Notes under the pieces: model-generated
Database searches by the model: none
What the model was told of the DNA's origin: nothing
What the model saw: the letters and a program-made list of their open reading frames with translations, nothing else
In this document: piece by piece, positions 6,250 through 64,000 of the stretch
Layout: every line of letters starts with the position of its first letter
How positions within the stretch are numbered: the first letter of the stretch is position 1
Made by a program: the position numbers and the translations under genes
Source of the DNA: Nemertoderma westbladi
Taxonomy: Eukaryota; Animalia; Xenacoelomorpha
NCBI GenBank assembly: GCA_032718475.1
Contig: JAUCBJ010007014.1
Location: 101,946-165,945, forward strand
DNA: 64,000 bases
Reading direction: 5' to 3'

Positions 6250-7183
6250 AGTAGTATATGTTTGTATGACATTGCGCCATGGTCACCCATAGCCCATCAT
6301 TACCATCCATTTCTACTCCTTCCTCCAATCAGAAGCCACCATTTCAACCATTAGCAGTGGTCGTTATTATTTCAACCAATCAGATGTCAGCATTTCAACC
6401 GTAAACATGGTAACTTATCAAGTTCCCGCATCTTCCGCTAGAGGCGTTATTAGTCACCCAACGCTACTCCTTCCTACAATCATAAGCCTTTATCTTACAG
6501 GTGTTCGGGTGTCTACACTTAGCATCAGGTAACTTCTACTATTTTTCAAATCGCTATTTTTCAGCAACCAGTATTTTCATATTCACCAACCTTTATTTTA
6601 CAGGCGCTAAGAGTGTCTACAGGTAACTTCTACTATTTTTCATTTCGTAATTTTTCAGCAACCAGTATTTTCATATTTACCAACCTTTATTTTACAGGTG
6701 CTAGGAGTGTCTACAGGTAACTTCTACTATTTTTCATTTCGTAATTTTTCACCAGTAACTAAATTTAATTTTGCAATTTTTCAGATAACAAAATATTCAA
6801 CCGGGTTCGAACTCGGGACCAATATGATTTGCTACAATTCACCGCTCACTCTTCCATCCAACCTCGAAAGAAAAAGACTATAAATATCCGAGTTATAGCT
6901 GTTGAATGCCAAGTAATAATTATTCAATATCGATTTATTCATCATAACTGGTCGCAGATGTTTACAAATAGCTTGTGGTAGTATCAATTATAAATTATTG
7001 TTCATTGAATTCTATACTTATAGCATATATCACCAACGAGATCCAATTATTCTAATGATTTCGATAGCATAAAATGCATATTAATTAATACGAAATACAT
7101 CTAACTAATAATAAGAATCTACTTGTTCTACATACATTATCAGTACAATATTGACAGGTTAATTACGTTTGAATATAAGATGG
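6250..7183. repeat. outer left arm of the large inverted repeat
   Basis: Reverse complement of 54923-55650 and 38118-38233. Contains CCAATCAG repeats and three ~94-bp tandem units (~6526-6760), where the right arm has two. Confidence 0.95.
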
Positions 7184-14030: not shown

Positions 14031-14157
14031 TGTTAAAGTGTAAAACAGTAAGATAGGAAACGTACCGCCGTACCGGTGTTCCTCCTTCTATATCTTTTAT
14101 ATCTTATATCTAGTTTGAATATCCCGCCACCAATATACTACATATATACATTTGACA
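14031..14157 (-). repeat. Copia 3' LTR
   Basis: Direct repeat of 18772-18898. Confidence 0.97.
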
Positions 14158-14277
14158 TTCTCACCTCTTTCTTTAACATAAACGTAATAGGGTAGTAACA
14201 GAAAAGAAACATAAAATAAGGAGTCCAATAAATGTCCAATAATACTAACTAGTCATAGTTTTTTTTTTTTTTTTTTT

Positions 14278-18693: not shown

Positions 18694-18759
18694 TAATATT
18701 ATATTAGTTACGTTGTAGGCCTACTACCTACCTATTGTCTGTTTATTCAGCGTCAACAC

Positions 18760-18771
18760 GCTCTGCTACCA
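18760..18771 (-). promoter_or_regulatory. Copia primer-binding site (tRNA-Met type)
   Basis: TGGTAGCAGAGC immediately inside the 5' LTR, the PBS typical of GalEa Copia elements. Confidence 0.9.
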
Positions 18772-18898
18772 TGTTAAAGTGTAAAACAGTAAGATAGGAA
18801 ACGTACCGCCGTACCGGTGTTCCTCCTTCTATATCTTTTATATCTTATATCTAGTTTGAATATCCCGCCACCAATATACTACATATATACATTTGACA
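18772..18898 (-). repeat. Copia 5' LTR
   Basis: Direct repeat of 14031-14157. Confidence 0.97.
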
Positions 18899-30413: not shown

Positions 30414-30424
30414 ACACGTATCAC
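30414..30424 (-). promoter_or_regulatory. BEL-B non-canonical PBS, complementary to its own LTR (31487-31497)
   Basis: GTGATACGTGT abuts the 5' LTR and pairs with GCACGTATCAC (10 Watson-Crick pairs plus one G-U). Confidence 0.7.
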
Positions 30425-32591
30425 TGTTAAACTAGCGCGACCCCTATACTAACAGCAGAACTGTTGAACAGACAAATACTGGTATACTTCTCTGCCAACC
30501 TAATGAGTTCTCGCCTAACCAATAAGGCACCAAGACTGCTCTACTGTTAAGTAAAGGGGATCAGGAGCGTGCTATTACTAAATGTAGGGCTGCTAAATAC
30601 AATACCGCTACTTACCGTTGGATGGTGCTAATCTGCCGTCCGCTAATATATTTTACTAAATTTACACAGCTCCTGCAAAATCGCTTGTTCCTTTCTCTAC
30701 CGATCGCTCGATAGAGAGCTAACTGTTCGAATCTATGAGCCACGCGGGAATAACCAAACAATAAACCTGAGTCGGCTCCCTAAGCTTACTTAAGACGAGT
30801 GCGAGAGGCTTTGCACTCAGAGTATTCTTACGCCTAACCTTACTATTAAAGTACGCCAATGCCTACGTCTTTTCTAATCGTGAATACTGGGGTTCCCTAA
30901 CGGAATGTATGAATGCGAGAATATTTAAAATAATCAAAATTGGTACAGTATGCTGTCTCTACGTGCGTGTAAAACCACTCCGGGTCTAAAATTGCCTGCA
31001 GCTGGCTTTAGGCCAGCAAATTACTAGTGTGTTGTGCGTACTGAATAATGCGATCTAGCTTATTGCCCGCTAATGCAAATAACCGCTCAGCGTGAATAGT
31101 TTACGGTACTCTAATTATTACGTTAGCTACCCTCCGCTATGCTGCGTACTAATTCTTAATTTTACTAATCGATTACAGTCACAAATATGTAACAGCGTAC
31201 TAATTACTAAGAGTTCCAGAATGCGTAATTCTAATTTATTACACAACAGGTTTCGCTAGTAATAGCCTAAAATGCCGTATTACTTTGACCTAATCAGTAA
31301 TTAATTGTTGTAACTAAGAAATAGAAATCAATCAAAGAGAAAGGCGCCTACCTAAGCATTCGTAATCATAGGCACACTTCAGTAACACACCAATCAGCGT
31401 CAGCAATCACAGCTCGCAATTATACAGTTAACTACAGTGCAGCCCACAGTTGTGCGATTCACTCTTCGTACTCCACACTTCACACTGTGATACGTGCAGG
31501 CCTCTCCCGGGTACATCTAGGCTTCCTAACTAACCCGATTCCTGCCCCCCTAATACTAAATAGAGACGAAACCTGGATCATCAGCCCCCTAATTACTGTA
31601 CCGGCGAATGGTCTGCATGCTACAGTGCGAAACGCCCGACCGCAACAGTGACCCCCTGCCAGCGTTGCCCGCCTTTGAATCCTCCGCTCTCCCTTAGTCG
31701 CCCAACCCCCCGATACGCCAACCGCCTACTGGCACCTTAGCCCTTCATTTAATTGAATAGCTACCGTAGCGGCGCATGCAAAATCACAAAGGTCTGACAG
31801 TCTCAGAAAATCCCTTAGGATTATTGCGTAGAGATGAATCACATAGAACCATTAACAAAAGGGGTAGAAATCATAGTTCTGATTGTAATTAGCAGTAATC
31901 GATAGGATTGATTGAGAAACGCAATTGAGAATAGTAGCACTAACAAATCATTTCAAGCAATTAATCGAAAATATAGCAAATTGCAGAAATATGCAAAATT
32001 ATACTTCTAACTTAATGGTACTAAATATGTCTGAGTGGTTCAGCAAGGAATGTGGGACAATGAAGAAGGAGAAGGTAGGGCTCTACCGGAAAACCGCCAA
32101 TTTATAGGTGATCCGAGTGGGGTGATGCAATAAGGGTGACGCAATCGCTCTCCTATTGGCTCTCCAGTCCGCGCTAGCATTAGGCCAACCTGGAAGCAGT
32201 TAGTCCAATAAGAAGGCCGGATTGTAGCCCTATTGCTTCCCAAACCCTCAAATTATTACCATATATGGTAATGGATCATGTCCCTGGCTGCTGAATGGTT
32301 AGGACTGCGTTCCTATGCTAGCCATGTCGAGGCTAATAACAGCAAGCCCGTATCCAGGGTCCAACAAGAACTTGCTACCCTGGGACTATCTACCTATATC
32401 CTAATACAAAATTACATAGATAGGGCTACGTACTATACAAAATGGATGAATTCAAAATATATGGGCGTTTTAACTTCCTTATCTAAATGTCACCGCACTG
32501 TGCCTTATCTAAATAATTATACTGCATAATAACAAACATATTATACTGTATGATGGCTAATAATGTGGATACAGCGCCATATACCGTAACA
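30425..32591 (-). repeat. BEL-B 5' LTR (2167 bp)
   Basis: TGTTAAACTAGCGCGA...CCGTAACA, followed by the TSD GATGG. Confidence 0.95.
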
Positions 32592-38233: not shown

Positions 38234-39437
38234 TGTTCGCGCTTTTAAGACCTTTGGCAGTTTAACCCGCCAAATCTGTATGTCTTCTAGGTTATAGTTC
38301 GACTTTAGCCTATGACAAGTATTTGACACAAATAAATCCAACATTAGCCGAAGCCAGTCTATGTGCGACCATTCACCCGCTGGATATACCCGGGAGACTG
38401 GATTCGGATGCTTTAATTTGATTGCGGTGCAGGCCTACCGTACTATTCGATTGATCGTTAATATAATTCCTGACAAATATCATTCACTTTCGGGAAATAT
38501 TAGCAGTTCCTTTAGGACGTGGCGCTCTATCTATATAAACAGAGCTATGGCTCACACTAAACACAACGGAATGGATTATAAGTTACACATAAGGCGCATT
38601 CTTTAGGAAATGCTTTGTTACGCGGACAAACACATACAGACTATTGCACACCGCTGCACACTGAATTGTCGATAGTCACTGATTTGAATCACATATAAAG
38701 AGAATAGCAACCGGCATTTGTAGGGCCTATAAAATAGCATTCAATTCACTACAAACCACGATAATATAAGCCGCAATTGCTATATGTAACCGTTCTCTCT
38801 AACCTTAGTGTATCAAGAAGATCGGGGTTTCTGATCGTTTATCGTTATTCTCCAAATAACAATATGTAAACAACTGATACAATTAATAACAAACAGTAAA
38901 TAGCAGTAAATAATGTGCAATACAGCAGTAGGTACCGTACCGTACCGGTCCTCCGGTGCTGTGCTGTGCTCCGTGCGTCCTCACGGTAACAGTTATGTGA
39001 TCTTATAATTAAAGACGTTCTAATGTTGGAATAATTCAGAAATATTCCACAGCCGATGTTTCTAGGCTCTGGAAAAACCAACACACTGAACCCTGTGAGC
39101 TGTTGCAGGTAGCTTTCAACACAGAAAGGAAAAGCTCTCATTGGCAGAACTCCAGATTCTGTAGGTTCCAAATGGTCTAAAATGCCAAACCACCCTAGCC
39201 TTTGCAGCCAATTACATTGATTTAGCCAACATAAGGCTGAATCACTCTGTTTGGTTGATCGTTGTTCCGATTGGTTGATCGAACCGAACGAAGAGGCCGT
39301 CGCTAGGCAAATCAGCCAATCAGCCGGTAGCTTTCATCCTTTGAGTTAGGGAGTTTTTCTTTAGAGTATTTGAGCGCATTGAGGGAAACTGGATTGCGAA
39401 GCAAAAGGGCCAGTTATATCCCACAAAAGCTTTTACA
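38234..39437 (-). repeat. BEL-C 3' LTR
   Basis: Direct repeat of 53719-54922. PPT-like GGGAGCGG on the minus strand at 39438-39445. Confidence 0.96.
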
Positions 39438-39669
39438 CCGCTCCCAGGAAATGGGATTTAATTCTATAAAATATAAAAAATCACAGTTTCTAAAATATAA
39501 AAATACTCTAAACAGTTAGTCTTTCTTGCGTGGATGGCGTTTACGCAGTTTTTTAAAGTTAGCAAGAGTCCTTTTCTCTTTGGGGGGAGCCACTTTACTA
39601 GGAGGGCCATAACTCCTGGGTGAAGGGTGCAATATGATTGCATCAGAAGGTGTAGGATTATGGTCGGGG

Positions 39670-43377: not shown

Positions 43378-46300
43378 TCAATAGTTTCCGGAGAGTTCTC
43401 TGTCTCTTTCCAGTAAACACAAACGACCAACTGGGCGATTGAGCTGCTGTGTCTCAAAGACAATTCCCGGTTTCTTGAAGTTACTTCGCATGACGACGAG
43501 TTCTACCGATCGCACCAAACCGTCATCCGAGATGTGAGTCTCGATGATACGTCCTGTCTGCCACCGCTTACGTGGAAGATCTGAGTCTACAATAAGGACC
43601 ATGTCTCCAGCGCTGACGTTTTCTTGCTGCACAAACCACTTAGTTCGAAGTTGTAGCGTGGGCAGATAATGTTTCTCGAAATGGTCAGCGAAACGACGGG
43701 ATAACAACTGCATAAGTTGCCAAGTTTGCCGGCAGTATTCGTCTCCGTCTGTGATTTCCGATTGTGGGAGCATGGCTACAGGTTTCTTCAGTTGGAAATG
43801 CGCGGGTGTTAGCGCTTCCAGGGAATCGGGACTCGATGAGACTGGCATAAGTGGTCTCTCGTTGAGATAGGCAGCAATTTCCTCCATTAACGTCCGCAAA
43901 AGTTTGTCGGTGAGATACGCGCGGCAAGGCACTATAAAGTGAAATGCGGTCTTCACACTTCTAATCAATCTCTCCCAACTTCCTCCCCACCAAGGGGCGT
44001 CAGCGGCGTTGAAGGTCCAGCTAGACGCTGTTACTCTTAGCTGATCATCCACCTGTCTTTGGTTCCAATCCTTGACGTAAGCTTTGATTTCATTGTTGGC
44101 ACCAATGAAGTTCGTTCCCTTATCAGATCTCATTGTGTTACTAGTTCCAAAGCGAGCGATCTGTCGTTGTAAGCTTAATAGGAAGCTGTTGGTAGACAAG
44201 TCGTTCACCATGTCGAGATGGATAGCTCTACAAGTCATACAAACAAAGATGACACACCATCTCTTGACTATAGTTCTAGCACGATACACTTCAATAGGGC
44301 CAAATAAATCTACACCGGTATTAGTAAAGGGTGGTTCATAGAAGCTTACTCGTTCCCTAGGTAATTCTGCCTCTCGCTGTGTTAAAGGCCTACTGAATGC
44401 TTTCCTACAGGGTATGCAGTTCCTAAGAACTTGGTTCAGAGCTCTACGGGGTTTATAGAAATAATAGCGAGTTCGAATTTCGCTGAGAACTCGTTCTCTA
44501 CCAGCATGATAAAGTTTGCTGTGAACATCTACAATCATCTTGACTTGTATTTCAAGATTTCTAATGAGTATGGGAAACTTAGTGTCAAAGGATAATGGAG
44601 CATTCATTAATCTTCCTCCAACACGTATCAACCCATCTATCATTGTGCTAGAGAAACGATCCCTTAAGCGCATCTGGGGATTTCTCAACAACAGGAAATA
44701 CTTATCGGAATCCTCATAGCATTGCAGGAGTCTCAGCATCTGTTTGTTGGTTTCTTCATGCTCCTGATAACTGATCTTCTCCTTCAGAAACCTGTCGGAT
44801 ATCTTATATTTGGGAAGATCTTTAACAACATGGACCTGCACTGATGTCAGTGGAGCTGTATCACTATTGGTCTTCGTCCCGGAGTAGTGATGATGAAAAC
44901 ATCGTTTTAAATATGTTACGGCCTTACAGAGCCGATTCCAGGAACTGTAGTGATGTATCGCTCTCTGCAGGAGAGGTGAGAGTCCTTGCGAAACGTCTGG
45001 TATTCCAGATTTCCAATCCTTCTCACGGATTTCCATAACCTGCTTGTTTACGGCTATGGGTTTCTGATCCAAAGCGTCGTCTCCGGAAGTATATAGTACG
45101 GACAGGTCTACCATAGGTTTAAATAACTTCGATTTACTCGCCTGAGTTTTAGGTTTAACTTTCTCCGCTCCCTTGGGGTGTCTAATCTCTGCTGTAGTAA
45201 GATGAGGAGGCCATTCTTCTTCTTCTTTGTACAGGAAGTCGGGTCCACCTAACCAGTCTGGAGTATCTACCAGCTCTTGTGGAGTTGCTCCCCTGGAGGC
45301 GATGTCGGCTGGATTGATCGTTCCGGGGCGATGTCTCCATTGGTCCATTGTCGTGCGACTAAGTATAATGGCCACTCTGTTGGTAACGAAGACGCTGAAC
45401 TGACAGACTTCATTGGTTATATACTCTAACACGAGTAAAGCGTCAGTCCAATAGACAGCTTTCTCCAATGGATAATCGATCTGTTCAGTTACATTCCGAC
45501 CGATGGCTGTAGCGTATAGAGCCGCCTTTAACTCCGCTCGAGGAACCTTCAACTTGTTGTTTATCAACGCCTTAGAGGTAACCAAGGCAACCTTGATTCC
45601 GTCTGGAGTTTCCACTCTTAGGTAGGCTACTATACCTATTCCCATATCGCTGGCGTCTCCAAACACATGGAGTTGATAGGAATACGTAGGGAGAACATGA
45701 CCAAAATATGAACGGGAAATTATAAAGTTCTCGATGGCTGGTAAAGAATCTTCCCATTTCATCCACTTCTTTAATAATTCTCCCTTAAGTGGATCGTCCC
45801 ATGAGTGGTTTTCTAGCCACATTTGTTGTACTAAACTCCGAGCAATCAATATAACTGGGCTAATAAATCCCAATGGATCGAAATAAGTGCTTAGGATACT
45901 TAAACAAATCCGTTTAGTTCGAACTGGATTATCTCGCTGTTTTAGTTGGAAAAACAGGATATCCCTCTCGGTGTCCCATTTCAAACCAAGTGTCTTGGTT
46001 TCTGGAAGATCATCTTTGATTAGGTCTAGGTCTTTCGCCCCTCGATCTTCTACCGGGATCGATTCCAGAAACTCACGGGAGTTGCTGGTGAATTTAGTTA
46101 ATCGAAATCCACCTCTTTTTAAACACTCTACCGTTCCTTTAGCGACATCAATGGCTTCTTTGCTTCCATGTATATGTCTCGTTTGATATTGTCGATCACC
46201 TCTTTAGAGAAGGCTTCCCGATTGTCATCCGCAGTGGTACGCACTACTGAACAGGCGTTTGAAGGACTTGAGATTATTCCAAAAGCCTGGATGGTCATCC

Positions 46301-49300
46301 AGTACTCCACCGGTTTCTGGTTGAGGTTTCCTTCAGGCCACCACAGAAATCGTAGGCTATCTCGATCCCTATCCAGTGCCTTGACTTGTAAGAACATGCC
46401 TTCTATATCTGAGGCGAAAGCAACTGAATATTGTCTTAATCTTAAAAGTATTCCCAACAAAGATTGGAGTAAGTTGGGTCCGGGTAACAATTCGGAATTA
46501 AGGGATTGGCCCATGTAGAGGGCGGAGCCGTCAAACACTACTCGTACTTCGTGAGGTTTACCGGGTTTGGGAACATAATGGTGAGTTAAATAATACGTTC
46601 TCTCGGTTATAGGTGTTTCTTCCGGTACTCGCTCCGCATATCCCTTGCTAATAAATTTCTTCAACTGCGTTTGATACATTTCTTTAGCTGAAGAATTTGC
46701 CGTAAGGCGTTGATGTAGTTGAGCAATTCTTTTCTCCGCCAAGGGTCTGTTGTTGATGAACTTTGGTTCTCGCTTTCGGAAAGGTAGACCGATTTCATAT
46801 CTAACTTGATCTTTCAGAAAACGGGTAGTTGTCTCTTGGATCTGCTTGGCTCTTTCTTCTTCTACCGATAGGGCCTTATCGTAGGAGTTGGGCTCTACAG
46901 CCTCTTGAGTAAAAAATCGTACGGCGTGTTCATCCCGAGTTTTGGCATTATAACGTTCAATGACGTCATTCAGTTCGTCGTTGTAGTCGTCTCGTTCCGA
47001 TGGACGAATGAGCTGACATAAGTTTACTTGGTTTTGCCAAGTCTCGTTTTCCGTAAGGAGATCTATTGTATTCTCCTCATCGAAGAGTTGGTGTATATCA
47101 TCGTTGTCTGAGGAGTATGGAGTTCCCTCAATTGGATCGTCTAACTCACTGTTCTCAACTTCCCATTCTCGTACTTGATATACCTGATCTTTCGGTAATC
47201 TTTCCATGAGAGTTCTACGGGAAGGGCCAGTAAAGTACCAACCCACTCTGGTTCTTACCGCATAAGCTTGTAATGGTTGCGGCTGAGCGGGCCGTTTCTC
47301 CAATGTCTCGAGCGCTTCATGCACGTTTTGACCGATGAGTATTTGCACTCCAGGGTAATCGGTGTTGAATCTAGGTATTTTAAGGTGCTGGGTGAAATCG
47401 TCCTCATCCCAGTTATAAGGTTCCACTTGGCTGGTAGCGAAGTTCTTTATCGCCACCATTTTTACTGACCTTATACTATGTTCTCCTAGTTCATCCTGGG
47501 GTGTGGACAATGCGCTTACATAATAATCCGCTGTTACGGTAGATTTCCAAACTTGCATTATTCCTGACATGTTTAGCTTAGTTCGGTATTTGGGTTGTCC
47601 AGCAAAGATGTCCTCGGCTAGTTCTTTGTCGATGAATGTTCCTGTGCTACCGGAGTCAAGGAGGGCGTTTACTATATAACTCCTTTGAGGTCCGTGGACC
47701 CGTAACTGGACTACAGGAAATTCTCGGATCCCTACATTGGAAGTTGGCGCTTTCCAAGATGGTTGTTGATCAGAAGTAGTTAGGGTGAGGTCGCTGTCTG
47801 GGTCTTTTTCATACATGAGTGCTCGATACACTGCGGTATTTATCATGTAACAGGATTCGTTTTCGTCGGAGAACTCGTCCGTATAGAATCCTTCCATCTC
47901 AGAACTTTGGTCAGTGTCGTTCACATCACTGAATTGGACATGTAATTCGGAATCACTCACCTGACCCTGGCTGTTTCGCTCGAATTCAGTGTGCAACAAG
48001 ATATGATGCTTCGCGCCGCACTTTGCACACCTGGTGTCAGAGTAACAGGTTCGCCGTTAGTGTCCTTGTCTGAGGCAATTATAACACAACCGCTTATCCC
48101 ACATGACTTCTCGTCTCTCCGTTAATGATTTCTTTAGGAATTCATCACACGTATTCAAACGGTGGGTCCCGTCACATAGCACACATTTCAGTTTGATGTT
48201 ACTTACCTTGTTTTGAATAACATTGTGCACACTCGTTCTTTCATCGGGCTTTCTTACCTGAATTCTCTTAGGAGACGTAGGAGGAGTTTTTCTTAACGGT
48301 TCTCTCCTGTCATTGGTTCGAGACTTGAATTTACTCTCCTGTTCTTTAGGTGTTTTATTGACATAATAAGATCTTTCAGTATCTTTCCCGCTATCCTCTC
48401 CTTGAGAATTCTGGCTTTCGCCGTCGTCGGTATAACATACTGGTGTTACCTTTCTCCTAGAAATGGGTTTCTCACTTACCTTACTTTCCGATGTCTTCTC
48501 TCTGGACTGCTTTATGAGCTGTAAATTCACCTCGCTATCCAAGAATGACATGAGATCAGCCATGGTAGGGTCTCATTGTTGTTGTTCCATCATATATAAC
48601 ACTTTCTTGTCCCAGCGTGTACCTACTCCACCTTTCGGTAAAGTAGAAGTCACTGCTCTAATAACCATAGCACTCTGATACTCATGAGACTTACCTAGCC
48701 AATCTAATTGTCGGCAGATCTCCTGAATCTCATCGGAAAACTCGATAATCCCACTGCTAATAAACTTTCGGGGCGCTACCAACTTTGCATACAAATACCC
48801 AGCTATGTTATTCCTATTACCATACCTGAAGTTTAGAGTATCCCAAACTTGTCTTAATCCCTCTGGATGTCCAACAAATTTTAACGCCATTAACTTAGGA
48901 GGTCCTTCCAAGCATTCGATGAGGTATCTGAGTTTCTCTCCGTTAGATAGCACAGAGTTCTGTATGTTATCTTTATAATATTCATTAAAAGGTAACCATT
49001 TCATCTCATCTCCATTGAACTTGACGATCTCTCCTACCTTTACCGCTTGGCGGGCTTCGGTTCTAGCCATTTGAGTAAATTTATAAATAAATCAAATATT
49101 CCATTAATATAGCATATTTGATTTAGTTTTAGTCTAAAACTTTCTTGGGCCATCGTGTTATTTAATATCGAATTATCAGTATATAAATTTCTCAGATTAT
49201 TATCAAGTCTATATGGGATATCATTGTCAACAGGTTTATAATTACCCTTAATAGGGTTTACTATAGGAGTTTCTACTTCGCTAGCAGTATAGATGCGTGT

Positions 49301-51529
49301 AGGCTCCACACCTTGCGCATGAGATACTTCAGACCTAACGGGTTGACATATTGTTACAGGGAGTGGTGGTATACCCTTTTGTAAATTGACTAATTTATCG
49401 CGTTCTAACGCGATACTTTGCTGCACTTCTTGCAACTCTAACCTACTTTCCTTTACGGTTCCCTTCAACTGTTGAACAGTCCCTTCTAACTCTCGGACCT
49501 GTTGGGAGGAGCGCACTTGATTCTCCTCCATCTTTCCGAGGAGAATATCCATCCCCCGCCATCTCTCGTCTACCCAATCAACCGCCGAAGCGGGATTCGC
49601 CAACGTCGTAGCGGGCAGACGAGGGACTACGGGCGATATATCCTTTATATTTCGCTCGGAGTCCAGGACCGACACTGTTTCAGGGGCTGCTCCTCTAGGC
49701 ACGGATAATTTGGTGCTGTGTAAGGGGAATTTAAAGGTAGGTTCAGGGAGCACAGGTGTCTCTATCACCGAAGGGGTGATTTCAAGAACAGGCCTAATTA
49801 TTTCAGGCTCATCTACTATAGTAGGGAGTCTTTCTATTTTAATTATTTGGTCTGTGAGTTCTGTACTACCTAAGCCTGCGCTAGTTAGTTGTCTTTTAAC
49901 AGCTGGGGGCAAATCAGGCAATTTCTGACGGTGAGATGTTCTTCTACGTCTGCTTAGACGAGATCTATTTCCTCCGCCTTCAGCATCGGTGGTATCGCCT
50001 TCCTCAGATGATGTATATCCTTGGCGTTTGGGAGTAGATCGACTCATCATCTGCATTCGACTATCTGTTAACTGTTTATTTATGTTGTCTTGCGTCTCTT
50101 GCAGATTTTCCAACTCCAGTTTGGTGGTCTCTTCCACCGCTCTCCGTTCTGCTTCTGCCACTGCCACTGCCGCTTTTCTTTCCATTTCGGCTGCTTTTCT
50201 TTCCGCTTCTGCCTCTTTTCTTTCCGCTTCTGCCTCTGCCACTGCCGCTGCCGCTGCCGCTTTTCTTTCCACTTCGGCTGCTTTTCTTTCCGCTTCGGCT
50301 GCTTTTCTTTCCGCTTCTGCCGCTGCCACTGCCGCTTTCTTTCTGTCTTCTATACGTTTTTTCTTTACTTGTTCTTCTTGGACTCTAGCGATGCGGAGTT
50401 GTTCATCAAATTTAGCTTGGTTCGCAGCTATCATATCTGCATCGATTGCGTCCAACACAAGCTTGGCTCCTTCACTATTAGGGCTAAGTCCCTCCAGCCG
50501 TCTCCTCAACTCTTCGTCTCCTAAAAAGCGTTGATAGTCTGACAGATAGATGTCAATAGCATCCCTCTTATGCGGTTTCTCTGCTGTCGCCTCACTTTCC
50601 ACTTGGGAAAAGGTAGCGTCGGTGGATTCCCCAAGTGTTGAGCGCTCATCTAACTGCGATTTCCACGGGGCAGCTCTTTGAACTTGGAGACTCAGCCGCT
50701 GCAACCAAGTCTTTACGGCAACTTGCAACGACGTGTCTTGCTTTCTTTTCGAAGCCTCCTCAAAGGCAGATAAGATTAGTCTGATTCTTAGAATTCTTTC
50801 TCTAACTTGATAAAGCAGCTCTCCCTGCTCTTGAGGTCCTTGTGGTTGTCTAAACAGTTGTTCCTCCAATCGCTCCATAGAGCTGGAGAATCCCTGTACG
50901 TATCCGGCTGCTGACCTCTTCCATACAGCTGGATCGATGGTTTCCTTTGTTACTCCCATCCTGTGTATGTCTTCCCAAGCAGCTTCCGATAAGTCAAACG
51001 GTAGTCCGGGTCCGGGGAAGCTCCATTGCGACTCGACAATAGACTTCAGTTCTTCCCGTGGATATCACGCATAACTATCCTTGGTCGATCGCTTACTTCT
51101 CGCCCAATCAATCTGGTGTTCCTCCACTGCAATCAATACCCTGGTGAGTACGGCTGCAGGAAGGATGAGAAGGGGATCCGAATAAACCGTATCCGCTATC
51201 TTCGCTTCGCGTTCGGGCGTTAGCTCAACAGTATCCGAACTACTGGAGCTCTCGGGTCGCTGAGAACTAGGTTCTTGGCTAGGAGGTTGCTGCTGTTTGA
51301 CAGCTGCTTCTTGATCCCGCTTAACTTGGGCCCGAGTACCGATGATAGACCTATGGTGTTGGATTAGCCTAGGGTCTGATATTACTACAGGAGGGATGAC
51401 CTTCCTCACAGTAGGAGGTGAACTGAACTTAGGTCTAGACGGTTCCACACCCCTATCTGAGTCGCAGATAGTTACATCTAATAAACTGTCTGACAGGTTC
51501 TGCTTAGTATCAGACATGTTTGTTTGCAC
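43378..51529 (-). pseudogene. BEL-C gag-pol with in-frame stops, frameshifts and loss of the RT YMDD motif
   Basis: ORFs 51065-51529, 49040-50959, 48573-49070, 48057-48563, 46128-47999 and 43378-45984. Motifs: KFNGDEMKW, CYNCLRQGH, ALLDSGSTGTF, RVVFDGS, DIEGMFLQV, FGDASD, GVDLFGP, SDKGTNF, GGSWERLI. The frame reads IYM and then jumps past DD at ~46165. Confidence 0.93.
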
Positions 51530-51649
51530 AGTTGAATGCCCACTGCTATATTACAGTTAAAGCAAGTCTAGTAATTCAGTATTAACTGTTAGCCTAGTAA
51601 TTAATTACCGATACTGCTACGCAGTGTAGCGTGATATATATATAATATA

Positions 51650-51905
51650 TTAGAATACCGGTATGCTTATAGTATATATATATAAGTTTTATTACAGACT
51701 AGGTTTGTCACAGAATACCGGTATATAAATTTAGCACAAATATATATAAATATATAATAGGCCTATCGTGAATACCGGTATACAGTCTACACTTATAGTA
51801 TATATAAGTATAATTCTGGACTAGAATTAATTACAGAATACCGGTATAATTTCAGCCTAAATTTATAGAAATAAAGATAATAGGCCTATCGTAAATACCG
51901 GTATA
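51650..51905. repeat. ~60-bp periodic AT-rich repeat carrying AATACCGGTA in the BEL-C leader
   Basis: The motif recurs at ~51654, 51714, 51771, 51837 and 51894. Confidence 0.8.
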
Positions 51906-52910
51906 TCAATTATTTTAAATAATTGAATTTCTGTATTTTAGGGGTTACTTGGTTACTTTACTTACTTTATTACCGTTATTTGAGCAGTAGTCCAACTAAT
52001 ATTGAGACCTAATTGTTGTATGTCAGGCCTACTATTTATAAATCGTTAGAGTTGATTTATAATATATATATATATACCCGTTTAATGGGTTTTGTCAATA
52101 TTTGAAATAAATGTTATTATTTCTGAGAAAGAGTCACTACACAGAAGCTGTGCGCTCTCAGTGAAGTGCTACTTGTTGGACACTAAAACAAATAATTCTA
52201 ATTTACCTAAGTTACTTAATACTATAAATTACGTATAATTCGGGGTGAGATTACAATCTCTAAATAAACACAAAAATTACAAAAAAAAAACAAATACGAA
52301 TTTTTAGGGTAATTTTACAAGAAGTCTACAAACCAGCCTAACAAAGGATTAGAAATCTGGTTATTACAAACGGACAGGATACTACGGTATTTGAAAATAA
52401 TAAGTAGTAGTAAATACACTGCGTTGTCCAGATAGGAAAATACCACCGTCTGACGACCTATAGCCGTATCGCTATAGGTACTACGTTATGTATCACGGAG
52501 TGTCCCTACCTAGAAGTTAATTACCGCGGTCTACCAGAACCAACGTGCCTATTAACCACTTTACAACACAAATATACTGCCTACACACTAATTACCCTCG
52601 GAAAGCACTGTACACTAAACCCTAAATTAGGTACAAGTACTTGTACAACAAATAATCAGTAGTTAGAAATACTTGAACAGCTAAAAGAACCACGGTATCT
52701 GCCGGAGTGACCGGTGCACAAAATCACCAGCCTTTACCTACGCCAAGCAGCCCTGATGTAGTACCGGGGTTAATTTAACTATAACGGTATATATAACAAA
52801 CAAGCACAATTACTGTAGGAATAAACTTGGGGATATGAATGTTGCGAATAATCGCATAAACTCTGAATAATAAATATTACGCTACCCGTACAAACTACTC
52901 AAACAAAATA

Positions 52911-53446
52911 CAACCAAATGCTGACAGACTACTATCAAGCCTAAATAAATTACAGAATGTGCAGATTCCGAAATGGTTAGTTAGTATGCGTTCTAACTGA
53001 GTAGTACGACTTATTCTTTCAGAGGGGGTTTACCTTACAGCTCTGGCTGCCCCAACGTTCCCAACTAGTACTTTATCGGACATACACTCTACACACACTA
53101 CAATCCCTTCAGACCTAACAACAGCCAGACAACAATCTAGCCTATAAATTATCTGAATAAGAAATATTACGGTACCTGTACAGACTACACAAACAAAGTA
53201 CAGACCAAACGCTGGCAGACTACTATCAACCCTAAATAAACTACAGGACATGCAGACTCCGAAATGGTTAGTTAGTATGCATTCTAACCTAGTAGTACGA
53301 CTTATTCTTTAGGTGGGGATTTACCTTACAGCTCTGGCTGCCCCTACTTCCTAACCGTCACTTTATCGGACATACACTCTACATGCACTGCAATCCGTTC
53401 AGACCTAACAACAGTCAGAACAACAGTCCAGCCTACAAATTATCTG
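52911..53446. repeat. tandem duplication (~290-bp period) in the BEL-C leader
   Basis: 52911-53155 is similar to 53202-53446. Confidence 0.85.
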
Positions 53447-53707
53447 TACGATCTGAGCAGGGTTACACGCCTTCTGCTCAATAATAGCCTACTAGTAAAT
53501 AAAACTGACAGAAATAAGTAAAATCTCAATAAAAAACCAGGGCGGGCCCTCCCTGATTTAATATTAAGGCCTACCGGTATATAATTATCAAAATCGAATA
53601 ATACTGCTGTACCTGTACTGTAAGTACCGGTTCGGGCAGTTGGGCCTACAGGCCTACAGGTACCGGTTGTCTGGTACTTCAGCTTTATTGCCTACTGCAA
53701 TCAGAAA

Positions 53708-53718
53708 ATAACTGTTAC
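53708..53718 (-). promoter_or_regulatory. BEL-C non-canonical PBS, complementary to its own LTR (54471-54481)
   Basis: GTAACAGTTAT abuts the 5' LTR and is the exact complement of ATAACTGTTAC in the LTR (11/11). Confidence 0.75.
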
Positions 53719-54922
53719 TGTTCGCGCTTTTAAGACCTTTGGCAGTTTAACCCGCCAAATCTATATGTCTTCTAGGTTATAGTTCGACTTTAGCCTATGA
53801 CAAGTATTTGACACAAATAAATCCAACATTAGCCGAAGCCAGTCTATGCGCGACCATTCACCCGCTGGATATACCCGGGAGACTGGATTCGGATGCTTTA
53901 ATTTGATTGCGGTGCAGGCCTACCGTACTATTCGATTGATCGTTAATATAATTCCTGACAAATATCATTCACTTTCGGGAAATATTAGCAGTTCCTTTAG
54001 GACGTGGCGCTCTATCTATATAAACAGAGCTATGGCTCACACTAAACACAACGGAATGGATTATAAGTTACACATAAGGCGCATTCTTTAGGAAATGCTT
54101 TGTTACGCGGACAAGCACATACAGACTATTGCACACCGCTGCACACTGAATTGCCGATAGTCACTGATTTGAATCACATATAAAGAGAATAGCAACCGGC
54201 ATTTGTAGGGCCTATAAAATAGCATTCAATGCACTACAAACCACGATAATATAAGCCGCAATTGCTATATGTGACTGTTCTCTCTAACCTTAGTGTATCA
54301 AGAAGATCGGGGTTTCTGATCGTTTATCATTATTCTCCAAATAACAATATGTAAACAACTGATACAATTAATAACAAACAGTAAATAGCAGTAAATAATG
54401 TGCAATACAGCAGTAGGTACCGTACCGTACCGGCCCTCCGGTGCTGTGCTGTGCTCCGTGTGTCCTCACGGTAACAGTTATGTGATCTTATAATTAAAGA
54501 CGTTCTAATGTTGGAATAATTCAGAAATATTCCACAGCCGATGTTTCTAGGCTCTGGAAAAACCAACACACTGAACCCTGTGAGCTGTTGCAGGTAGCTT
54601 TCAACACAGAAAGGAAAAGCTCTCATTGGCAGAACTCCAGATTCTGTAGGTTCCAAATGGTCTAAAATGCCAAACCACCCTAGCCTTTGCAGCCAATTAC
54701 ATTGATTTAGCCAACATAAGGCTGAATCACTCTGTTTGGTTGATCGTTGTTCCGATTGGTTGATGGAACTGAACAAAGAGGCCGTCGCTAGGCAAATCAG
54801 CCAATCAGCCGGTAGCTTTCATCCTTTGAGTTAGGGAGTTTTTCTTTAGAGTATTTGAGCGCATTGAGGGAAACTGGATTGCGAAGCAAAAGGGCCAGTT
54901 ATATCCCACAAAAGCTTTTACA
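53719..54922 (-). repeat. BEL-C 5' LTR
   Basis: Direct repeat of 38234-39437. Confidence 0.96.
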
Positions 54923-54927
54923 TTATG

Positions 54928-55650
54928 GTATCGAAATCATTAGAATAATTGGATCTCGTTGGTGACATATGCTATAAGTATAGAATTCAATGAACAATAA
55001 TTTATAATTGATACTACCACAAGCTATTTGTAAACATCTGCGACCAGTTATGATGAATAAATCGATATTGAATAATTATTACTTGGCATTCAACAGCTAT
55101 AACTCGGATATTTATAGTCTTTTTCTTTCGAGGTTGGATGGAAGAGTGAGCGGTGAATTTTAGCGAATCATATTGGTCCCGAGTTCGAACCCGGTTGAAT
55201 ATTTTGTTATCTGAAAAATTGCAAAATTAAATTTAGTTACTGGTGAAAAATTACGAAATAAAAAATAGTAGAAGTTACCTGTAGACACTCTTAGCACCTG
55301 TAAAATAAAGGTTGGTGAATATGAAAATACTGGTTGCTGAAAAATAGCGATTTGAAAAATAGTAGAATTACCTGATGCTAAGTATGGACACCCGAACACC
55401 TGTAAGATAAAGGCTTATGATTGGAGGAAGGAGTAGCGTTGGGTGACTAATAACGCCTCTTGCGGAAGATGCGGGAACTTGAGAAGTTACCATGGTTACA
55501 GTTGAAATGCTGACATCTGATTGGTTGAATTAATAACGACCGCTGCTAATGGTTGAAATGGTGGCTTCTGATTGGAGGAAGGAGTAGAAATGGATGGTAA
55601 TGATGGGCTATGGGTGACCATGGCGCAGTGTCATACAAACATATACTACT
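54928..55650. repeat. outer right arm of the large inverted repeat
   Basis: Reverse complement of ~6250-7067, missing one ~94-bp unit. Confidence 0.95.
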
Positions 55651-56653
55651 CCGGATTAGGATGGATATTTCCTGACATTAGGAGAAGCATATTGATTGTT
55701 ACCGCGAGAATAAGGAGTATATCTAATATAGAGCTTCGATATATTGTGAAGGATAATGCTACTGCATGATATATTAGTAATAAATTACTTTTTAATTTTG
55801 GTTTGTAAGTTTTCTGCCAGTGTAAATAATTGTTGTATTTTGTAAAATTGAGGTCATTCCTCAGAAAAGTATAGGAATTAAAAATAATAAAAATAACGCA
55901 AAGCGCTGAAAGAATTTCTTTATTTGTTTTTAGAGTTTCAGTTGCTGTCTGCAATTTTGGATGCCAATTTTTAATTTTATATGTCGGATCAATTAGTTTT
56001 ATGCATATAATGTACGTTGAATATCGGTAAAAAAAATACTTAACAATAGTTAGCAACCAAATATGTTTGAAGGGATATATTGTTTTGTAGTAAAATATTG
56101 TAATGTGTATATAAAGCGTTTGGAATGCTATTTGAAAAATAACACCATTAGTAAATTTCATGTCATACTGCATTATCAGGTACTGCGGTATAATTACCAT
56201 AAATAGCAGCCCGACTAACCAAAGCAATCCAAATTCATATCCCATATATGTTGGAATATTTCCTCGGTATTTGAGTCTAAATTTTTGGAATATTGTTATT
56301 AGCACAATTTTTTTATTGGTAAATTGTTTTTGTAATAATATTCCTGCAAATACAACTACTAAAGTCGAGAGTTGAGTGAAAATTGTAAGTACTGGCACAG
56401 ATAAAATATTCCAACAACATATAAAGGTTTTTATCATTATATTGCACAATATTTCTCTAGAAATTGTACTAATGTTAGAATAGTGGTCAAAACCTAGGTC
56501 GTTTAATTTATTGAGATTATTTATTAATTGCACGAAAAGTATATACGTAGTTTTATTTTCATATGTATATACGGGTAGACATGGGATCATTGGCGGTGTA
56601 CCAGGTAGGATAGGTAGAAAATATATACAATAATTTATAACAATGTATATCAA
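55646..56653 (-). CDS. hydrophobic ORF ending in a truncated 2A-like peptide (N-terminal part of LINE ORF2)
   Basis: 335-codon open frame in AT-rich DNA with several hydrophobic stretches. It ends in LLLMSGNIHPNP/E, and the stop is supplied by the adjacent element. Confidence 0.6.
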   Translation of the reverse strand: MIYIVINYCIYFLPILPGTPPMIPCLPVYTYENKTTYILFVQLINNLNKLNDLGFDHYSNISTISREILCNIMIKTFICCWNILSVPVLTIFTQLSTLVVVFAGILLQKQFTNKKIVLITIFQKFRLKYRGNIPTYMGYEFGLLWLVGLLFMVIIPQYLIMQYDMKFTNGVIFQIAFQTLYIHITIFYYKTIYPFKHIWLLTIVKYFFYRYSTYIICIKLIDPTYKIKNWHPKLQTATETLKTNKEILSALCVIFIIFNSYTFLRNDLNFTKYNNYLHWQKTYKPKLKSNLLLIYHAVALSFTIYRSSILDILLILAVTINMLLLMSGNIHPNPE

Positions 56654-58450
56654 TAAGATAGTGAGTGACGCTTGAATTAAATTTATGTAATATATTAAAA
56701 ACCATTTTTAATAAGATAAAATATTTGTGGGGTGGGGTTAAAAAACTTACACCTGTAATGCAGACCACTAAAGTTAGACATACGCCCAGTAGTAATTCTA
56801 TTTTATTGCACAATTGTACATCGACTGACAAAACTGACAAAAATACAATTATATCTTTTATAAAAATGAATGTAATAATTAAGTCATTTAGAGGTGGTTA
56901 TTATATTGTATGACTCTACTGTCATCCCCTAATATATTAATACTGGGCTTTGGATTCGCCTATCGCTCTCATTAGATCTATAACAGCGTTGAACACCCTT
57001 CCTCCTTCACCGTGATTCGCTGTAGGGTTGGAGTAGGGTTAGTAGGTTGGTGTTCTCTATAGGACCCCGGTTGCGGCCAATAATAAGCCCTGTGGGTCTG
57101 GATCAATGGCCATTCAGATGGTTGACTTGGATGTTGAATATTGTTGTTATTAAAGCGCGCTCCCATTGGGTCCCGGGGTTGTGACTTTCCAAATAACGCA
57201 CGTTTAATATTGCTAACATATAGACCCATAGCGTTATGAGAAAGGTGTTTAGCATCATATAGATGTATCGTGGTAAGGTTAGCATGATGAACAAAGGTTA
57301 TATCTAAATCTCTACAAACTTTGCTAATTTCGTTGTTAATTGGGGTAACGCTTTTGTCCGCTCGCGCAATAAGTGCAGATAAACAGATGTTCGCATCCGG
57401 CCATTTCTGATTAATGGCTTTGACGCTCTCCTTCAGATTTCTCGTGAGTTCTACTGGGTTGCGATATTGACTAGCGTTATCAACATCATTAGTTCCTGTC
57501 TGTATATATACGTGCTCTATATTATTATATATACTCAAAGCTGTTTGTATATTTTCTAACAATATTTGTGACGTTTGTGTTGGTACCATTTTAGCGAATC
57601 GGTTTATTTTGCGTGGGTAGACAAACTTCCTATTGCTATCCATAAATAGCAGTGTAGAGATTTCTTCAGTAGAACGCCTTCCATTGTCGACCTTGGTGAA
57701 TTTGTTTGGTGCCGCTATGGGCGCACCTCTTTCAGGAGTAATTTCGTTCAGGCTATTACATTGTAAGCCCACTGAAGTTGTTGTTTCAGTGTTACGTGGC
57801 AATACCGTATTATCAGCCGTATTTCCACTGTCACCAGTCAACAACAATGAGTTGTCCGGAAGAAGGACTAATGATTCGTTTAGGCCCCTACCGATTTCTG
57901 ATAGTGAGGATGTCTCATTCTGAATTGAGCTGAGTACCGGTAATGGAAACGATTGAGAATCCTCAGTCAGACCCAGGCCCTGCCTGATAGATATCCGCGG
58001 GGTTGGGGGGTTGCCGTTTGTATTAGTTCCCTCGTTAGATAGTTGTCCCATTAACTCGGTCCCCTTTCCAGAAGAGTAGTGTGTGAGGAGTATTATCTGC
58101 TCTTCAAGTACCTTTATTCGCTTAAGATCCTGTTCGCGTATAGTAAAAAGTGTTTTAAACGAATCCTCGAGGTATGGCAATCGGTTGATTATCGTTTCCC
58201 TGGCAACATCCGGAGTGTCTGCAGATTCGGTAATTATAGTTGGATCCGGATCCGGATTAGAATTAGTAACGCCTACATGAAAGTTTTTGGGTCCATCACC
58301 GTTATCTTCATTAGTTGAGATCTCTGAGGTTTGTTTAAGAACCACAGCACCTGTGAATTAGTAAAACATTGAGAGCAACCAAACAAAGTATATTACCTTA
58401 GATATATCGCTCGGGTAAATATAGATTACACAAATAAACGTAACATAATA
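55651..58450 (-). mobile_element. CR1/L2-group LINE, 5' half only; truncated at the start of ORF2
   Basis: Esterase-type ORF1, then an ORF ending in the 2A-like LLLMSGNIHPNP at the junction with the palindrome. The 5' boundary is approximate. Confidence 0.7.
56978..58345 (-). CDS. LINE ORF1p with coiled coil and SGNH/GDSL esterase domain
   Basis: FMDSN (block I), QTGTNDV (block III) and YDAKHLS (DxxH) motifs. The start codon is uncertain. Confidence 0.85.
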   Translation of the reverse strand: MVLKQTSEISTNEDNGDGPKNFHVGVTNSNPDPDPTIITESADTPDVARETIINRLPYLEDSFKTLFTIREQDLKRIKVLEEQIILLTHYSSGKGTELMGQLSNEGTNTNGNPPTPRISIRQGLGLTEDSQSFPLPVLSSIQNETSSLSEIGRGLNESLVLLPDNSLLLTGDSGNTADNTVLPRNTETTTSVGLQCNSLNEITPERGAPIAAPNKFTKVDNGRRSTEEISTLLFMDSNRKFVYPRKINRFAKMVPTQTSQILLENIQTALSIYNNIEHVYIQTGTNDVDNASQYRNPVELTRNLKESVKAINQKWPDANICLSALIARADKSVTPINNEISKVCRDLDITFVHHANLTTIHLYDAKHLSHNAMGLYVSNIKRALFGKSQPRDPMGARFNNNNIQHPSQPSEWPLIQTHRAYYWPQPGSYREHQPTNPTPTLQRITVKEEGCSTLL

Positions 58451-61041: not shown

Positions 61042-62292
61042 ATGGATAGAAGAAAGTCCACCGATACAACGAAGAAACAACAGGTTAACATAAACGCGCG
61101 ACAAACGGATGCTCATTCCTCGCAGACGAGGGGTAAATCAGGTTCACTACAAAGGAACACTAAGATTAATAAGATAACCATAGCACGGGATATTGCACGG
61201 GACGATGGGTTTACCGAAATCGAAGTTAACTGCTCTGGTTCGAACTGTGACGTCTCAATGATTTGTATAGCTAGAGAAGGGACCGAATTCGGCCGAATCG
61301 ATTTTTATTGTGGCACATGCGTGAGCCAACGTCTAGCTGGTCTCGCTGCCGAACTAGAGAAACACGAGACGCGTGTATGTGATAATCTGTTGGAGATGCA
61401 ACAACAATTGGACTCTATCACCGGTAGAACCAATAAACTGGAAAAACGGGTTAATGATAACAGAGACGCAACATTAACCAGATTAAAGGAACTTCGGGTT
61501 GAACTTGAAACAAACACTGACGATAACATGAAGAGGATCTCAAACCTTGAAACTTCTGTATCAGAATTCAACAATGCATGTACAACAGCGGAAGTGGAAC
61601 CTGATATCGGAGGTGTATGGAACAAAGTATCGTACTCTTCAAAGGTTAAATCCAACAAGAAAGTGCCAAACCTTGCCGCGCTATCAAAGCAAATACAACA
61701 CGAAGAAGCAGAACACAACAAACGTAAACTTAATCTCGTAATAAAAGGTTGCGATCTGCCACCAGAACGCGACGTTAAAGATGCTGTAATTGACATAGCT
61801 AGCGCCATTAATGTTGATCTAGTTAGGGCGGAGACTATTACAAGACGCGTCGGAAAACTGCAGAACAGTGGTCACCCGAGACCAATAGTTATTACTCTAT
61901 CCCAGGAGAAACGCCAGGCTCTCCTACGGAATGCCCGGGGACTCCGCAACATAGAGCGGTACAAGAGAGTATATATCTCCCCTGATTACACACCCGAAGA
62001 AAGTCGACTTCAGTTCGAGTTACGAGAGGAGCTCCGGTCTCGGACAGCTGCTCACCCAGATAAACGTTGGATTATCCAACGCAGTACCGTAGTGGAAGCT
62101 ACCTTTCAAAGATCAGACCGATCTGTCCGGCAATATCCTGTGGCAGGTGATATGGACAACGCACCCGAGCCTGTACAGAACCCGAAAACTATAGACCTTA
62201 CGACATCACCTCCTCATAAAGCCACCCATTCATATTCCGAACGACAATTTCGAACCAGAAAGAGTTCGGGAATATCCACGCAGACAGACTGA
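61042..62292 (+). CDS. CR1/L2-type LINE ORF1p (PHD-like Cys cluster, coiled coil, RRM-like region)
   Basis: CSGSNC...FYCGTC, heptad-rich region, RKLNLVIKG, RPIVITL and VYISPDYT motifs. Confidence 0.85.
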   Translation: MDRRKSTDTTKKQQVNINARQTDAHSSQTRGKSGSLQRNTKINKITIARDIARDDGFTEIEVNCSGSNCDVSMICIAREGTEFGRIDFYCGTCVSQRLAGLAAELEKHETRVCDNLLEMQQQLDSITGRTNKLEKRVNDNRDATLTRLKELRVELETNTDDNMKRISNLETSVSEFNNACTTAEVEPDIGGVWNKVSYSSKVKSNKKVPNLAALSKQIQHEEAEHNKRKLNLVIKGCDLPPERDVKDAVIDIASAINVDLVRAETITRRVGKLQNSGHPRPIVITLSQEKRQALLRNARGLRNIERYKRVYISPDYTPEESRLQFELREELRSRTAAHPDKRWIIQRSTVVEATFQRSDRSVRQYPVAGDMDNAPEPVQNPKTIDLTTSPPHKATHSYSERQFRTRKSSGISTQTD

Positions 62293-62400
62293 CAACCACC
62301 TACATGCACAGCCGGGACACCGAAGGTATCCCTGTCACTTGTAAGTTTCAACCATACAATCAGTACCATACACTTTGACAATATACCCGGTAATGGCAAT

Positions 62401-64000
62401 AACGATGGTATCAATAATGTAAACAGTCCCGATACCGATGATTATATATCCGGTACCGGCAGTAATGATATTGTCAATAATGTAGACAGTTCCGGAAATG
62501 TTAGTGATTATAAATCAACCTGTAATGAAAGTGTCAATAATGTAAACAGTCTTGTTACCGGTGATTATATATCCGGTACCGGCAGTAATGATATTGTCAA
62601 TAATGTAGACAGTTCTGGAAATGTTAGTGATTATAAATCAACCTGTAATGAAAGTGTCAATAATGTAAACAGTCTCGTTACCGGTGATTATATATCCGGT
62701 ACCGGCAGTAATGATATTGTCAATAATGTAGACAGTTCTGGAAATGTTAGTGATTATAAATCAACCTGTAATGAAAGTGTCAATAATGTAAACAGTCTTG
62801 TTACCGGTGATTATATATCCGGTACCGGCAGTAATAACATTGTCAATAATGTAGACAGGTCTGGAAATGTTAGTGATTATAAATCAACCTGTAATGAAAG
62901 TGTCAATAATGTAAACAGTCTTGTTACCGGTGATTATATATCCGGTACCGGCAGTAATGATATTGTCAATAATGTGGACAGTTCTGGAAATGTTAGTGAT
63001 TATAAATCAACCTGTAATGAAAGTGTCAATAATGTAAACAGTCTCGTTACCAACGATTATATATCCGGTACCGGCAGTAATGATATTGTCAATAATGTGG
63101 ACAGTTCTGGAAATGTTAGTGATTATAAATCAACCTGTAATGAAAGTGTCAATAATGTAAACAGTCTCGTTACCAACGATTATATATCCGGTACCGGCAG
63201 TAATGATATTGTCAATAATGTAGACAGTTCTGGAAATGTTAGTGATTATAAATCAACCTGTAATGAAAGTGTCAATAATGTAAACAGTCTTGTTACCGGT
63301 GATTATATATCCGGTACCGGCAGTAATGATATTGTCAATAATGTAGACAGTTCTGGAAATGTTAGTGATTATAAATCAACCTGTAATGAAAGTGTCAATA
63401 ATGTAAACAGTCTCGTTACCGATGATTATATATCCGGTACCGGCAGTAATGATATTGTCAATAATGTAGACAGTTCTGGAAATGTTAGTGATTATAAATC
63501 AACCTGTAATGAAAGTGTCAATAATGTAAACAGTCTCGTTACCAACGATTATATATCCGGTACCGGCAGTAATAACATTGTCAATAATGTAGACAGGTCT
63601 GGAAATGTTAGTGATTATAAATCAACCTGTAATGAAAGTGTCAATAATGTAAACAGTCTCGTTACCGATGATTATATATCCGGTACCGGCAGTAATGATA
63701 TTGTCAATAATGTGGACAGTTCTGGAAATGTTAGTGATTATAAATCAACCTGTAATGAAAGTGTCAATAATGTAAACAGTCTCGTTACCAACGATTATAT
63801 ATCCGGTACCGGCAGTAATGATATTGTCAATAATGTGGACAGTTCTGGAAATGTTAGTGATTATAAATCAACCTGTAATGAAAGTGTCAATAATGTAAAC
63901 AGTCTCGTTACCAACGATTATATATCCGGTACCGGAAGTAATGATATTGTCAATAATGTAGACAGGTCTGGAAATGTTAGTGATTATAAATCAACCTGTA
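62401..64000 (+). repeat. 123-bp tandem array (~13 units, each 60+63-bp subunits), open in frame, runs off the window
   Basis: AGTAATGATATTGTC recurs at 62461, 62584 and 62707. The unit translates as SNDIVNNVDSSGNVSDYKSTCNESVNNVNSLVTGDYISGTG. Confidence 0.97.

Follow-up and report, generated by a model that had tools for sequence, protein, structure and literature searches.

Organization of the Locus

The window, that is, the whole 64,000-nt stretch of Nemertoderma westbladi contig JAUCBJ010007014.1 that was analyzed, carries two BEL/Pao elements, BEL-C and BEL-B, whose parts are collected in Table 1. BEL-C lies on the minus strand, runs from 54922 to 38234 and spans 16.7 kb. Its membership in BEL/Pao is indicated by Gag/Pol domains of the Pao type, arranged as PR-RT-RH-IN, two TG..CA LTRs, a polypurine tract (PPT), and a 5-nt target-site duplication (TSD). 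The repeat into which BEL-C has inserted occurs once more, without an insertion, at about 7068–7072 of the window, which confirms the duplication. Pfam detected DUF1759, Peptidase_A17, an integrase zinc-binding domain, and DUF5641, and echinoderm, coral, and fish BEL/Pao proteins are the best homologs (31–34% identity). With 13 differences over 1204 nt between its two LTRs (98.9% identity), BEL-C is young. It is also a defective copy: stops and frame changes interrupt its gag-pol, one of them in the RT catalytic region, and RT would have to be supplied in trans. The earlier note overlooked this defective state.

Several further features surround these parts. A 2.2-kb leader (51500–53718, minus strand) with internal repeats of ~290 and ~110 nt precedes the BEL-C gag, and ~3.9 kb of mostly non-coding sequence lies upstream of the PPT. 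A BEL-C relative at 5922–6186 (plus strand, 88% identical) is present as a 3′ end only, consisting of the PPT and the LTR start, and breaks off after a short LTR stretch. BEL-B, whose ends are fixed by the CCATC duplication, has extra 3′ ORF pieces of 529, 223, and 448 aa (10590–14032, minus strand), which gave no match in Pfam or the Atlas and weak matches only in PDB; by eye, they presumably contain three CCHC-like knuckles and an exonuclease-like stretch. Nested in BEL-B is a Copia element (14028–18898, minus strand) with short LTRs, which we take to be GalEa-like. LINE-like ORFs (55646–58357, minus strand), with a weak GDSL esterase match and presumably with a 2A-like peptide end, are found upstream of the repeat interrupted by BEL-C. 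A 3.1-kb region (33169–36309), part of a larger inverted arrangement, is 92.5% identical to its reverse complement, and a tandem array of 123-nt units, 90–97% identical, occupies 62277–64000.

Table 1. Positions in the window of the BEL-C and BEL-B features discussed here.
Feature	Position	Strand	Remarks
BEL-C 5′ LTR	53719..54922 (54922-53719)	-	1204 nt, TG..CA ends
BEL-C 3′ LTR	38234..39437	-	1204 nt, TG..CA; second tract copy at 38996-38986
BEL-C target-site duplication CATAA	54923..54927, other copy 38229-38233	-	
Polypurine tract preceding BEL-C 3′ LTR	39438..39445	-	
BEL/Pao-type gag-pol of BEL-C	43378..51550	-	interrupted by stops and frame changes
BEL-C primer-binding site (PBS) GTAACAGTTAT	53708..53718 (53718-53708)	-	offset 0 from LTR, without TGG
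Candidate self-primer tract of BEL-C, LTR 442-452	54471..54481	-	11 nt
Splice-donor-like GTGAG	54465..54469	-	1 base past tract; one of two GTRAG in LTR
TATAA motif	54488..54492	-	11 nt upstream of tract; only nearby TATAA
Conserved block across BEL-C family copies	54471..54515	-	depth profile, contig ends, loose ends; 4/4 runs, 3 samples
BEL-B 5′ LTR	30425..32591	-	2167 nt; TSD CCATC
BEL-B 3′ LTR	8834-7184	-	without ~520 nt of sequence
BEL-B PBS GTGATACGTG	30415..30424	-	offset 0
BEL-B tract, LTR 1096-1105	31487..31496 (copy 7739-7730)	-	10 Watson-Crick pairs and one G-U

Complementarity between PBS and LTR in BEL-C and BEL-B

The earlier note had claimed that the 11 nt adjoining the 5′ LTR of BEL-C are the exact complement of a tract inside this LTR, and this was confirmed, the tract being repeated in the 3′ LTR. 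Indeed, GTAACAGTTAT is matched with one mismatch or less at only three sites within the window, namely the PBS and both LTR tracts. Contiguous Watson-Crick pairing stops at 11 bp, as claimed, the pyrimidine-A step (C-A) is present at the start of the tract, and the loop between tract and PBS measures 752 nt, close to the ~760 nt given before. The absence of a TGG-type PBS likewise holds, with no TGG within the first 20 nt past the LTR, whereas the Copia element of the same window carries such a PBS; an 18-nt PBS of the ICTV type, complementary to a host tRNA 3′-end, is absent from BEL-C as well. Among 20,000 dinucleotide shuffles, complementarity equal to that of BEL-C arose 5 times at offset 0 and 75 times when offsets 0–5 were allowed, and 7 of the 14,271 internal 11-mers of BEL-C, the PBS counted among them, have a complement in the LTR.

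BEL-B, which had been overlooked as a replicate, shows the same relation, and the claim of self-priming itself gains from this comparison. The complement of GTGATACGTG is present in both BEL-B LTRs, and its complementarity was equalled in 6 of 10,000 shuffles. The LTRs of BEL-C and BEL-B contain no alignable sequence (best E 0.09), and therefore the letters differ though the PBS-tract relation holds. The RH-IN regions of the two elements are 34% identical, and they are long-branch sisters (support 99) in a quick tree that includes no named-clade references. In neither element did a splice junction improve the match (at offset 0, the best was 7 for BEL-C and 6 for BEL-B).

Distant BEL/Pao Relatives and a Predicted Intron-Split Tract

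A scan of genome contigs yielded 12 BEL loci; they come from bacterial assemblies, into which animal host DNA had presumably been binned. Three (L124, L128, and L129) were too short and nine long enough for examination; L123 and L125, which have no LTR pair, gave nothing convincing in the complementarity test. All five LTR-paired relatives (L118, L119, L120, L126, and L127) have a self-complement of 11–14 nt. That of L118 is contiguous over 11 nt but lies at offset 4. In L119, L120, L126, and L127, the contiguous complement at offset 0 is just 5–8 nt, and a complement of 11, 11, 11, and 14 nt, respectively, appears across a GTAAG..AG junction bounding a predicted LTR intron of 76–697 nt. L121, with a collapsed LTR whose end was set after the match had been seen, has an 11-nt complement across such a junction, and L122 has the same PBS and joint as L119. 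Thus the PBS complement of L119, L120, L121, L122, L126, and L127 exists only across a predicted LTR intron, the introns being called from motifs only. The split tract takes 3–7 nt from exon 1 and 5–8 nt from exon 2, and post-splice loops would be 74–149 nt. This intron-split form, overlooked by the earlier note, points to a primer made at the RNA level if the predicted introns are real; since the match exists only after intron removal, a DNA inversion cannot be its source. In the quick tree, one branch (support 97) has the junction-type elements together on the same side. The ends of L118, L119, L120, and L127 were confirmed by target-site duplications. The LTR of L127 (L127:7169-7873) ends in TA..AA instead of TG..CA and is accompanied by a clean 5-nt target duplication. 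Apart from this sample, a 16-nt pattern scan of metagenomes returned 117 loci, none of them homologous except for one 40-nt match (E 8e-4), and no relative was found in three viral-contig scans.

The matches are specific to each element. When random internal positions of seven elements were scored in the same way, 0–5 out of 400 per element equalled the score of the PBS, and in a PBS × LTR matrix of eight elements, each PBS matched its own LTR over 10–14 nt and the others over 9 or less (56/56 cells). The match is exactly 11 nt long in six of the eight elements, with 10 nt plus a G-U pair in BEL-B and 14 nt in L127. The duplex starts at the first base past the LTR in 7/8, which is a requirement of a primer, and every one of the eight tracts ends in AC and is followed by a base unable to pair, which suits a defined cut. 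Judged by these signatures, the putative self-priming feature is common to a wide BEL/Pao sample. Of the earlier interpretation, the proposal that this BEL lineage self-primes is well supported by the comparison with BEL-B and six distant elements, each with its own PBS matched to its own LTR.

These data bear on two other explanations. First, the BEL-C match might be due to chance, aided by the near-palindromic, AT-rich nature of the 11-mer, and a single scan match at 2.5e-4 to 4e-3 is not rare among many elements. Its replication in BEL-B and six relatives, with 0/56 cross pairs reaching 10, and the conservation of the tract in family reads (see below) leave this explanation strongly disfavored. 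Second, the primer could be a host tRNA half or small RNA, the LTR match being incidental or copied from such an RNA. ICTV gives tRNA-Arg or tRNA-Gly as BEL/Pao primers (PMC8742986), half-tRNA priming exists in Copia according to the accessible part of PMC6317226, and the GT with which all eight PBSs begin might mean shared primer types; in L120, a TGG at offset 1 leaves room for a tRNA there. However, the eight distinct PBSs fit only their own LTRs, five of them across a predicted intron, and the two elements of one genome have unrelated sites. In BEL-C, moreover, the search for an element-encoded primer gene gave no internal complement, no tRNA, and no Rfam match; this last result, although Rfam is weak for an 11-mer, also speaks against a host RNA, which we regard as a quite improbable primer.

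Variation within the BEL-C Family

Contigs of BEL-C from four sequencing runs are numerous and include many variants, and the family is therefore abundant. With a 121-nt reference, the best contig depth was found at ~54470–54515 and fell to zero immediately beyond the tract, a drop that so short a reference may overstate, the depth with a longer reference being lower there too. At that point, contigs of all four runs (three samples) either stop or continue into dissimilar sequence, and the last base of the tract differs in a few contigs (1–3 per run). In the distal PBS, a 1-nt insertion is common (2644/21191 in X1, 7402/13917 in X3, 15/15 in X5, and 0/33 in X4). No matching insertion in the tract is listed across the family contigs, which are too short to join the PBS and the tract of one copy. 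The +1 variant would keep 9 bp plus a bulge, and its occurrence without a tract change counts against strict conservation of 11 bp. For X5, the RNA nature is only guessed, and the tract has no cover in this run, which is hence silent on expression.

A splice-donor-like GTGAG lies one base past the tract, and the spliceosome, instead of RNase H, might make the primer 3′-end there. The 1204-nt LTR contains just two GTRAG motifs, of which this is one; a T-rich stretch follows, and predicted introns are tied to the putative primer in the relatives. Cleavage there, however, would put a single mismatched nucleotide against the terminal A, so that the CA end would presumably be impaired; GTRAG is missing from that spot in BEL-B and L118, and the sequence after the tract varies between family copies. 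Almost no weight can be given to this possibility.

Transcription Start and the 5′-End of the Putative Primer

Two arrangements of the primer 5′-end were considered. The primer 5′ boundary quite possibly coincides with the RNA 5′-end, as in Tf1, with transcription starting at 54481. The C-A step and the conserved block, which extends from about −35 to +11 relative to such a start and ends at the tract's last base, agree with this, and a pyrimidine-purine step opens the tract in five of the eight elements (P 0.03, post hoc and with the BEL-B wobble base included). Predicted pairing is 0.5–0.9 if the BEL-C RNA starts at the tract or 6 nt upstream, and 0.06 or less for three earlier starts; in the minimum-energy fold from the tract start the duplex is absent, its ensemble probability being 0.5–0.75. 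Against a 5′-terminal primer, the junction-type relatives would need first exons of 3–7 nt. No TATA is found at −30 of 54481, and by the spacing rule between TATA and start, the TATAA at 11 nt is too close for a start at 54481. In BEL-B, CCAAT and TATAAA promoter motifs lie ~610 nt upstream of the tract. Almost as probably, the primer may be an internal tract carrying a 5′-tail or released by a second cut. The 3′ LTR copy of the tract or a second packaged RNA could serve as the primer source. An extra helix 5′ of the tract in BEL-C and BEL-B was also considered and rejected, as about half of random 8-mers match (624/1157 and 809/2120).

The pairing of tract and PBS might instead be a structural RNA element acting in packaging, dimerization, or as a translation switch, with another primer in use. 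The pairing is a prediction, as are the cut and the extension, and the long-range fold is unstable to the chosen RNA start, all of which leaves room for such a role. On the other hand, the duplex begins at the first base past the LTR in 7/8, a position required for priming but not for a switch, and BEL-C and BEL-B have no other evident primer site. A purely structural role is thus considered unlikely.

Proposed Mechanism

Directly visible in the sequences are a tract complementary to the PBS in each LTR of BEL-C, a PBS that abuts the LTR without a gap, and the corresponding relation, spelled in other letters, in seven further BEL/Pao elements. On these grounds, BEL-C is most likely self-primed by its own LTR tract, a reading that can be held with high confidence. 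In the proposed pathway, folding of the RNA would bring the tract into pairing with the PBS over the 752-nt loop. RT-RNase H would then cut past the last C of the tract, where pairing meets the mismatch opposite the LTR-terminal A, and RT would extend the 3′-OH into U5 to give the exact CA end. By copying the primer, plus-strand synthesis would finally reset the PBS to the complement of the tract in every cycle, which would explain the sharp, element-specific matches, even those across a splice joint.

In the intron-split relatives, a cut in exon 2 would keep the spliced joint out of U5/R; the joint would not be copied, the intron would survive, and splicing could therefore act as the licence for reverse transcription. 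It appears rather probable that a large BEL/Pao branch does without tRNA and uses its own 11-nt RNA primer, which BEL-C, BEL-B, and L118 would carry in one piece and a separate subclade would put together by host splicing. Should the signature be functional, splicing and reverse transcription would be coupled in the intron-split relatives. Self-priming predicts, to a single base, an RNA 3′-end at 54471 and a splice joint identical to the complement of the PBS.

Comparison with Known Self-Priming Systems

A BEL element of C. elegans has reportedly once been proposed to encode its own primer RNA. No description of BEL/Pao self-priming was found among the open-access articles searched. The main text available for three BEL/Pao surveys contains no PBS, primer, or tRNA terms (PMC3118150, PMC554778, PMC6238403), and the accessible portions of five other papers hold nothing on the subject (PMC3601003, PMC8220671, PMC5443660, PMC9094657, PMC11042837). 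BEL/Pao replication is poorly understood, and priming by tRNA is assumed per ICTV, which lists an 18-nt PBS for the two tRNAs named above, LTRs of 0.2–1.2 kb, and genomes of 4.2–10 kb (PMC8742986). BEL-C resembles the ICTV BEL/Pao group (Belpaoviridae, Semotivirus) in its Gag-PR-RT-RH-IN order, Peptidase_A17, DUF1759, and DUF5641 domains, PPT, and TG..CA LTRs, but differs from it in the absence of a tRNA-type PBS and in its length of 16.7 kb, and BEL-B differs in its LTR of 2.2 kb.

If functional, the feature described here would bring self-priming to a third LTR superfamily, after shown Gypsy and predicted Copia cases, and would account for BEL/Pao elements that lack a recognizable PBS. Such elements would also be freed from dependence on host tRNA and from control by tRNA fragments.

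In the text available for these sources, self-priming is described for Tf1/sushi elements and predicted for Tcn1 and TAR (PMC6317226, PMC4600332, PMC5341516, PMC10085805, PMC7175516). The sequence rule, as given in the accessible part of PMC6317226, is at least 10 complementary nt starting 0–5 nt past the LTR, and by this rule self-primers were predicted in plants for Tcn1 (Gypsy) and for TAR, Houba, and Osr-1 (Copia). BEL-C and BEL-B satisfy the same rule, but they belong to another superfamily and to other hosts, and the intron-split form is not mentioned for those elements in the part of the source at hand. The Tf1 primer is reported to be 11 nt long, with the RNase H cut between bases 11 and 12 (available text of PMC7175516 and PMC4600332), and plus-strand synthesis to copy the primer (PMC7175516, same portion). 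The Tf1 structure is described as a three-duplex pretzel (accessible sections of PMC10085805). The flanking helices of Tf1 find no general support here: a 10-bp helix adjacent to the PBS is present in BEL-C, as it is in 43 of 1000 controls (only the leader-side helix being scored against the null), and by the same leader-side scoring no flanking helix above chance was found in the other seven elements. Like Tf1, Tf2, Tj1, and the Tf1/sushi elements in general, BEL-C has its PBS directly past the 5′ LTR and complementary to an LTR tract of ~11 nt. Unlike Tf1/sushi elements, which are Ty3/gypsy chromoviruses, it has BEL/Pao domains and homologs and no chromodomain match; the loop here is 752–1062 nt, and the relatives join the tract across a predicted intron. 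The BEL-C feature, most likely a self-primer, would work like that of Tf1 but outside the Tf1/sushi group.
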